In this document: piece after piece, positions 61,419 to 62,419 of the stretch
Numbering within the stretch: the stretch's first letter is position 1
Layout: every line of letters starts with the position of its first letter
NCBI GenBank assembly: GCA_965263355.1
Contig: CBDHHL010000032.1
Location: forward strand, 1,664,001-1,728,000
DNA: 64,000 bases
Source: Leptolyngbyaceae cyanobacterium
Lineage (GTDB): Bacteria > Cyanobacteriota > Cyanobacteriia > Phormidesmidales > Phormidesmidaceae
Reading direction: 5' to 3'
Translations under genes and position numbers: made by a program
The notes under the pieces: model-generated
Database searches by the model: none
The model's input: the letters and a program-made list of their open reading frames with translations, nothing else
Told to the model about the DNA's origin: nothing

Positions 61419-61969
61419 TTTTTTACTCCTTATTTTAGGGTTGAACTCTAAAGTGTGGGCTAAGCAGGGCATGGCTCACCAGGTAGTGGGCCATTTAGAT
61501 GCAAACACCTTAGCTCCAAAGTCCTTGTCTTTGGCAATAGGGTTTTTGCTTGTTCCCCTGCCAATTGACGCTACCTGCCCATTGCTGTTATATGACTAAG
61601 GCATCGGAAAATCTGTAATCATTTATTCATCTACTGAAATTAGTACAGAGTATCCACACAAAGTGAGTCAATTGCTCTAGCATTGCGCCAAGCTTAAAAT
61701 TTTTGGCTCAGGGAGTGAATAATCAGCATACTTAGAATGTACATATTCAAGAACAGGCTCGTACTGGACCTTGGGACTACAGGTTAACTGCTGTGTACAC
61801 AGTAGGTGTTTTAGACTTTATTTTTAATGAGCATAAACATGAGGAGATGGTAGATACAGAACATATGTATTATTTTTTCTCGCGTCCATGAATTTCTAAT
61901 ATGCTCAGGGGGGAACTATACTGAAACTTTCCATATATCTACCTAATATGAACGTACTATATGGATAGC

Positions 61970-62030
61970 TCGCAGTATAGTACGCCGATTTGGGTGGATA
62001 GGCTGCAAGTTCGCAGTATAGTATGCCGAT
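61970..62030 (+). repeat. Two 20-bp direct repeats, 41-bp period, upstream of the attI-like core
   Basis: tcgcagtatagtaYgccgat at 61970 and 62011. Confidence 0.85.
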
Positions 62031-62054
62031 AAGGGGAGATAGACTGAAAAAGTC

Positions 62055-62074
62055 GATCTAATATTATGTTGCTC
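62055..62074 (+). mobile_element. Putative integron attI core site
   Basis: CTAA-TATTAT-GTT has the same spacing as the attI1 core CTAA-AACAAA-GTT. Confidence 0.5.
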
Positions 62075-62124
62075 TGACCCGATTTAAATGTTAGTACATG
62101 GGAACCCTATAGTACAACGGGTCA

Positions 62125-62211
62125 CAACAACACTATGTTGGAATCGACACCTCCGCCGTTAACCGCCGGACGCCGTTCCGGCGGAAGTGCGGTTCAACTC
62201 CATCGTTAAGT
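62125..62211 (+). mobile_element. Integron attC site
   Basis: AAC, 5-nt spacer, GTTG(G)AATCG(A)C-ACCTCCGCCG ... CGGCGGAAGT-GCGGTTCAAC, 6-nt spacer, GTTAAGT (GTTRRRY); two extrahelical bases. Confidence 0.75.
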
Positions 62212-62419
62212 AGCATTCTTTTGATCTCCAAGTTATTCTTGCCCTAAACCTCAGAACAGTATCTACTCGACTCTTTAGCTCATGAAAAAGTACCCTCTAG
62301 GGTACTAGTAAATGTATGGTCAGAAATTCATAATTAAACTCAAACTAATGATTTTCTAGTCCTAAATAACACTTAGGGTTGAAAAGTCATAGATAAATAA
62401 TAAGCTACACATCAAGAAA

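Follow-up and report, generated by a model that had tools for sequence, protein, structure and literature searches.

A gene-less cassette behind an integrase-less attI in a cyanobacterial genome: a member of a family of candidate minimal promoter cassettes

Near the right end of the window, by which we mean the whole 64-kb stretch of DNA that was analysed, a piece of a transposase-like gene, an integron leader with its attI, a short cassette ending in an attC, and a gene for a membrane-anchored protein follow one another. The features are as follows:

61745..61845, plus strand: 101 bp from the interior of a PD-(D/E)XK (Rpn-type) transposase-like gene, abutting the leader where intI has been lost
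61845..62070, plus strand: leader plus attI from an integron class of the Leptolyngbya/Adonisia family, without intI (alignment to locus L111)
61858..61871, no strand given: predicted LexA-like box belonging to the promoter of the lost integrase gene, differing at 2 positions from the cyanobacterial consensus of PMC3091678
61967..62048, plus strand: two 41-nt direct-repeat units with 20-mer cores at 61970 and 62011, conserved in homologues
62058..62070, plus strand: attI simple site CTAA-N6-GTT, crossover G/TT at 62068/62069
62068..62081, plus strand: 5′ arm of the terminal inverted repeat, pairing with 62118-62131 at 12/14 positions and extending the R box
62069..62205, plus strand: 137-bp gene-less cassette of the J-box subfamily
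62089..62093, plus strand: conserved TGTTA, 11 nt before the GGG
62100..62108, plus strand: candidate J-box-like extended -10 (GGGAACCCT), with the invariant GGG, A and T of GGGaAtacT (PMC6495340)
62118..62131, plus strand: 3′ arm of the terminal inverted repeat, recognised by sequence pairing and including R''
62125..62211, plus strand: attC (R'' AAC at 62129-31, 5/6-nt spacers, two extrahelical bases, R' GTT at 62205-07), from its fold and a covariance model
62420..63652, plus strand: first gene downstream, membrane-anchored, candidate promoter target (36-41% to a chromosomal family in relatives)

The elements that an earlier note had read from the letters are present: the 87-bp attC-like element at 62125-62211, whose cores, spacers and two bulged bases were checked literally; the CTAA-N6-GTT at 62058-62070; and the two upstream 20-mers, which are identical at 19/20 positions and lie within a 41-nt period. 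The 12/14 complementarity between 62068-62081 and 62118-62131 is likewise there, the present right end reaching only 4/14, and the cassette is indeed 137 bp long. As many matches were reached by 3 of the 1056 plus-strand GTT sites, two of them in unrelated places, and the end match taken alone is moderately rare and weaker than it appears.

The leader was recognised by its homology to DNA that adjoins integrase genes. The plus-strand region 61845-62070 corresponds to the DNA beside intI in L111, a complete integron of a relative, with 86% identity over 61846-62063; the alignment extends from 61845 as far as the GTT at 62068, where homology to relatives stops. A divergent full integron integrase lies upstream of the homologous leader in L111, L122 and L202, the L111 enzyme scoring 476 bits on TIGR02249 (cut-off 265), so that the direct repeats and CTAA-N6-GTT do sit beside full integrases, as had been supposed. 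The supposed loss of intI is borne out as well: the intI beside attI that makes an integron complete is absent from the 64-kb window, in which tblastn found no IntI remnant (best E 0.06, elsewhere in the window). The start of the lost gene must be moved, however. It had been sought at a 21-codon minus-strand ORF beginning MDARK at 61889, whereas in intact homologues the intI start codon aligns at about 61842-61844 on the minus strand, some 45 bp farther left. The LexA-like box is kept 14 nt from that start in L111, L112, L122, L124, L126 and L202, and the MDARK frame is therefore incidental in the leader. Immediately to the left, 61745-61845 aligns with the middle of transposase-like genes in relatives (69-82% DNA identity), one of whose proteins, from L298, matches PF12784 at 233 bits; this piece points to the removal of intI by an ordinary deletion or rearrangement.

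The loss is not peculiar to this locus. The region 61860-62075 was matched in 37 of 120 family genomes, often in several copies per genome. Examination of 74 attI loci, one without a match and three of them duplicates, left 70 distinct sites, a count that omits about two dozen weak or reverse self-matches; a full divergent intI was found at 3 of these, an intI fragment at 17 and none at 48, while 2 lay at contig ends. An orphan attI is thus the rule for the attI class of the window. As a separate observation, the family has at least five attI classes side by side, each distinct and bearing long arrays of repeated boxes (L081, L082/L083, L086, L090, L111 and the upstream parts of L227-L276), and most copies are without an intact intI.

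Within the attI, the two 41-nt repeat units are presumed to be accessory integrase-binding sites, a role that we take over from attI1. The position of the crossover was fixed by ordinary first cassettes behind the same attI class (20 parsable of 31 tried), since in 16 of the 20 the heptamer at the attI GTT agreed in 6-7 of its 7 positions with the R'' of the cassette itself. A sigma70-like scan for a Pc-type promoter directed toward the array returned 4 sites against 3.3 expected, which is the chance level. A cassette swap at this attI class, of the kind that the earlier note had proposed to look for, was seen in run X3, where a contig departs at 62070 into the start of a cassette of the S type described below. 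In runs X1 and X2, a low-depth contig with its joint in 61975-62068 connects an L137-type cassette start to the inside of the attI direct repeat and not to the GTT core; this contig may come from another organism.

The attC is predicted to be recombined by IntI as a folded bottom strand. This strand folds at -20.3 kcal/mol (z -3.35), a value equalled by 0 of 200 shuffles, and 62125-62211 is the top covariance match in the 64 kb, at 22 bits and E 0.0037, the next reaching 12.8 bits and E 0.84; the model, with a short calibration, was purpose-built from 16 attC sites of other, unrelated cassettes and is distinct from that of IntegronFinder. The covariance search that the earlier note had proposed thus returned the element, and its proposal of a gene-less cassette in first position is upheld. 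By this model the window, which ends 1.8 kb downstream, holds a single attC, where a CALIN needs two or more. A second candidate attC at 62057-62142 was rejected, having no extrahelical bases and no model match.

Copies of the cassette that are 84-86% identical lie directly behind the attI of three other classes (L106, L137, L138, L155), and the cassette is therefore mobile among four attI classes, that of the window included. A search pattern consisting of attC letters only, designed from family members, recovered a cassette family with its own attC type in 22 of 172 family genomes and 18 of 401 class genomes, with 0 matches for the reversed-pattern control. The 50 loci fetched are 50 distinct sites and fall into 25 clusters at 80% identity, here called lineages; at least five further pattern matches, which lacked a separate locus, are left out of this count. 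Among the 47 sites with a parsable R'', 37 lie behind an attI-like site as judged by eye, 6 behind an attC (3 of them tandem copies), 2 at contig ends and 2 elsewhere. Family members measure 134-266 bp, and they may be numerous in one genome: G001 carries 6 copies at 4 attI sites, and G305 carries 5 copies along one array with an intact intI. No match to the module or to a second cassette type was found among PLSDB plasmids. A viral contig of 113.6 kb (L186) contains a J-type cassette remnant with its attC, and is a possible route of cassette spread. At L083 (G001:C5), behind a gene-less cassette, an attC is followed by about 40 nt resembling the right end of an L081-type attI and then by the next cassette; by its sequence, a segment of one attI has here been taken up into a different array.

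These distributions bear on the reading that the locus is functionless debris, either a lone attC at a secondary genomic site (the attG/SALIN route) or a decayed cassette. Cassettes are able to insert outside att sites, as described in 10.1101/2022.09.11.507474, and intI has been lost at the window as well as at 65 of the 70 homologous sites. The upstream site is a true attI, however, and the cassette body is 84-86% conserved across genomes and attI classes, which together refute an origin by secondary-site insertion and leave functionless debris a very improbable account.

The earlier description of the cassette as ORF-less holds in that it contains no gene, but a small 24-codon ORF of the MLxLGNP type does begin at 62088 and runs to 62162, and it is not conserved as a protein. 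Were this micro-peptide the product of the cassette, its in-frame start in 17 of 26 J-type sequences would be accounted for; 9 of the 26 have no start, however, the C-termini shift in frame and length, and third codon positions are fixed where first positions vary, the opposite of what selection on a protein would leave. On these sequences the micro-peptide reading is largely refuted, and we give it hardly any weight. A small regulatory RNA or attenuator, transcribed from an attI promoter and forming two hairpins, with a loop motif that base-pairs to targets or is bound by a protein, is improbable, if somewhat less so. Two strong hairpins do form at 62062-62211 (z -3.5 to -4.7, folded as DNA), and regulatory-RNA cassettes without ORFs have been reported in Xanthomonas, according to a review; yet the attC and the terminal repeat already account for the hairpins, the motif interior shows no covariation, and no Rfam family came near its gathering score.

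The terminal inverted repeat is a property of the family. Beyond the 7-nt core, the arms of 20 members form a duplex of -8.5 kcal/mol with their own partner against -4.4 kcal/mol across members, and the arm duplex of ordinary cassettes has a median of -3.9 kcal/mol. Ordinary cyanobacterial gene cassettes at L128, L122, L190, L217 and L114 show end complementarity for 3-8 nt past the 7-nt core. The excised form of a cassette can be single-stranded. For the window's cassette the recombinogenic fold has a probability of 0.76 in the circle, against 0.0006 when integrated and 0.03 with the arm shuffled. Of 26 members tried, 17 were analysed, and in 16 of these the circle exceeded the integrated form; the one exception had a mis-set start. 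The self-complementary ends would thus hold the attC in its recombinogenic fold while the cassette is an excised circle and work against that fold once the cassette is inserted, and such a cassette would enter easily, duplicate and leave poorly. Under a slightly different protocol, ordinary cassettes gave a median circle/integrated ratio of 5.6, with values of at least 600 in 4 of 20, which leaves this ratchet suggestive. A low fold probability is known to reduce excision in vivo (PMC5371416).

Between the arms lies a promoter-like motif. The pattern GGG.A...T occurs in the 45-nt window before the attC in 15 of the 25 lineages (35 of 50 sites by a stricter motif); on the reverse strand it was found in 0 of 25, in 1000 shuffles in 1.0 on average and 4 at most, and in front of other attC sites in 2 of 49. 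Its core lies 34-46 nt before the L box. In all 15 J-type lineages GGG, AA and CT are fixed and two middle positions vary, and the same two positions are variable in the published J-box GGGaAtacT and its MEME motifs (PMC6495340). According to the supplement of that paper, the pilB promoter contains the exact L083-type nonamer in Arthrospira and a J-box in PCC 7375. The cassettes mostly have CC at the variable positions, which is not the Nostoc consensus; the window's nonamer occurs 0 times in the searched part of the supplement, and no cassette-type promoter appears in the Nostoc SigJ list as given there (PMC6495340). With a sigma-dependent start at about 10 nt from the hexamer centre (PMC6495340), transcription of the window's cassette is predicted to begin at about 62115-62116 and to read across the attC. 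Two SigF/SigJ-like factors are encoded in 5 of 5 relatives.

Some limits apply to the motif. The attC pattern was built from family members, so that conservation of the motif in the 25 lineages, which are not independent, may in part be common descent. A first motif pattern included the J-box and is for this reason excluded as evidence for it; four of its 15 metagenome matches are clearly due to chance or unrelated, namely L174, L180 and L184 together with ORF ends, for example L171/L181. The TGTTA, each position of which is kept in 14 of the 15 J-type lineages, is conserved as strongly as the J-box and is absent from the motif as published, so that another binder or role is possible for it. 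An ECF-type -35 was considered for GGAAC and rejected because the AAC varies across the family. An origin of TGTTA plus J-box from a host gene was also rejected, 9 of 11 matches (in 5 genomes) being cassettes or remnants and the others chance or antisense.

In a second subfamily with the same attC scaffold, the S type (5 of 25 lineages), a LexA-like box and a TGn-extended sigma70-type -10 stand in place of the J-box at a similar distance; the remaining 5 lineages have neither motif. The distance from the end of the -10 to the L box is 25-37 nt in the J type and mostly 26-28 nt in the S type. The S-type LexA-like boxes, found with a pattern set after inspection of the data, are individually weak, with 2-4 mismatches and 1-45 of 100 shuffles as good. 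A LexA-like 14-mer also overlaps the window's own J-box (62093-62106), with 2 mismatches and 7 of 300 shuffles as good, and is not conserved in the family.

Taken as a whole, the sequence evidence points to a decayed integron head, its attI kept and its intI deleted, whose cassette is probably one of a dedicated family of minimal promoter cassettes. We likewise consider it rather likely that this cassette acts as a plug-in promoter for SigJ/SigF, with a start near 62115 and transcription across the attC into the gene at 62420. An integrase, either the lost one or one acting in trans, would insert the circular cassette at attI; RNA polymerase with a SigJ/SigF-type factor would read the J-box from a start just before the attC; transcription would cross the attC and express the genes behind it; and those genes would thereby join the motility/hormogonium regulon, with the LexA-like box and sigma70-type -10 of the sister subfamily as an alternative input. 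In Vibrio, an attC is not a terminator (10.1101/2023.11.21.568050). The window's own copy may be silent. More tentatively, and with somewhat less than even confidence, the family might be regarded as a purpose-built set of interchangeable regulatory cassettes, in which one attC scaffold carries either a developmental promoter of the SigJ/SigF kind or one under LexA control between ratchet ends, and an integrase in trans rewires regulons at many dispersed orphan attI sites.

The principal competitor to the promoter reading is a selfish minimal cassette, a hyper-recombinogenic dumbbell that parasitises the integrase and whose motif serves its propagation as a structural or protein-binding element. 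Multi-copy and tandem spread, covarying terminal arms, the high fold probability of the circle, the unexplained TGTTA and the lack of a functional theme among downstream genes would all fit such an element. It leaves unaccounted for, however, both the exact retention of the invariant J-box letters in the loop and the different promoter-like motif that the sister subfamily carries at the same distance from the attC. We consider it unlikely as the whole explanation, and it is compatible with the promoter-cassette reading.

The candidate target at 62420..63652 has no Pfam or NCBIfam match. The 27 genes scanned behind J cassettes encode TIR, PIN, restriction-modification and hydrolase proteins and unknowns, with no motility theme, and at 12 of 49 family sites no sense ORF of 70 codons lies within 400 nt.

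Promoter cassettes as such are already known from Vibrio and Treponema (10.1101/2023.11.21.568050, PMC6557892). Those of Vibrionaceae superintegrons are likewise gene-less, carry an attC, and are proposed to drive downstream cassettes across it; they measure 491-666 bp, derive in some cases from decayed genes and have scattered starts, whereas members of the cyanobacterial family (134-266 bp) share an attC type peculiar to them, end in long inverted repeats and have a single conserved alternative-sigma motif at a constant position. Promoter activity was measured in the former (10.1101/2023.11.21.568050) and is predicted for the latter. Treponema cassettes are also ORF-less, one of them in first position, and show promoter activity, but their promoters are sigma70-like and were found with an assay blind to sigma28-type promoters (PMC6557892). 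First cassettes without an ORF are reported to be rare in that genus (1/42 and 1/5; PMC6557892), whereas 37 of 47 sites of the cyanobacterial family are in first position, a different statistic. The J-box promoters of Nostoc punctiforme SigJ share the GGG extended -10, the invariant A and T and the TGGG...CTA context, but are chromosomal promoters of motility and hormogonium genes (PMC6495340), whereas here the motif is on a mobile cassette, with an extra TGTTA and mostly CC. The family differs from known promoter cassettes in its compact dedicated scaffold, its alternative-sigma motif, its second regulatory flavour and its first-position bias. Our literature search, which left most subscription journals uncovered, returned no description of a compact cassette family with swappable input or of the window's attI class, and SigJ is unmentioned in the literature it found on promoter or gene-less cassettes.

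Like CALIN and SALIN, the module has an attC without a neighbouring integrase, but it retains an identifiable attI; since the tools that define those categories miss attI outside class 1, orphan attI platforms go uncounted (PMC4889954, PMC9024848, 10.1101/2022.09.11.507474). Many apparent CALIN and SALIN in this cyanobacterial family are such platforms. The locus also defines an attI class for filamentous cyanobacteria, attI being poorly described outside class 1 (PMC9024848). Integrons are usually seen as shuffling genes under a single fixed promoter; if the promoter reading is true, they shuffle regulation too, linking captured genes to motility and development or to SOS, and a 137-bp cassette is a short and cheap test object for the function of ORF-less cassettes.

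As to the assembly, two contigs from a second sample of the organism match the window, one over 62041-62843 without a difference and the other over 59500-61943 with two. None of the contigs listed crosses the entire attI, whose summed depth is about 3-6 times that of the flanks because other copies exist; the join of left and right flanks through the window's attI is likely correct. At the window's end, contigs from all three runs of the organism connect 63653 to 63798 with 22 other letters between, and the 113-nt duplication there (63653-63965) is a probable misassembly, which makes the end of the 486-aa ORF, the 3′ end of the 62420 gene, unreliable. The integron module is not syntenic across the eleven loci compared, and the DNA belongs to a filamentous cyanobacterium near Leptolyngbya PCC 7375 / Adonisia, with 84-88% identity in a neighbouring cyclase. 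On the minus strand at 61209-61472 lies a small ORF (about 70 aa from its second ATG) with 77% DNA identity to a gene of G003 and no Pfam match. Farther away, at 46597-50361, four genes resemble, by their translations, a phosphite uptake and oxidation operon, putatively ptxABCD.
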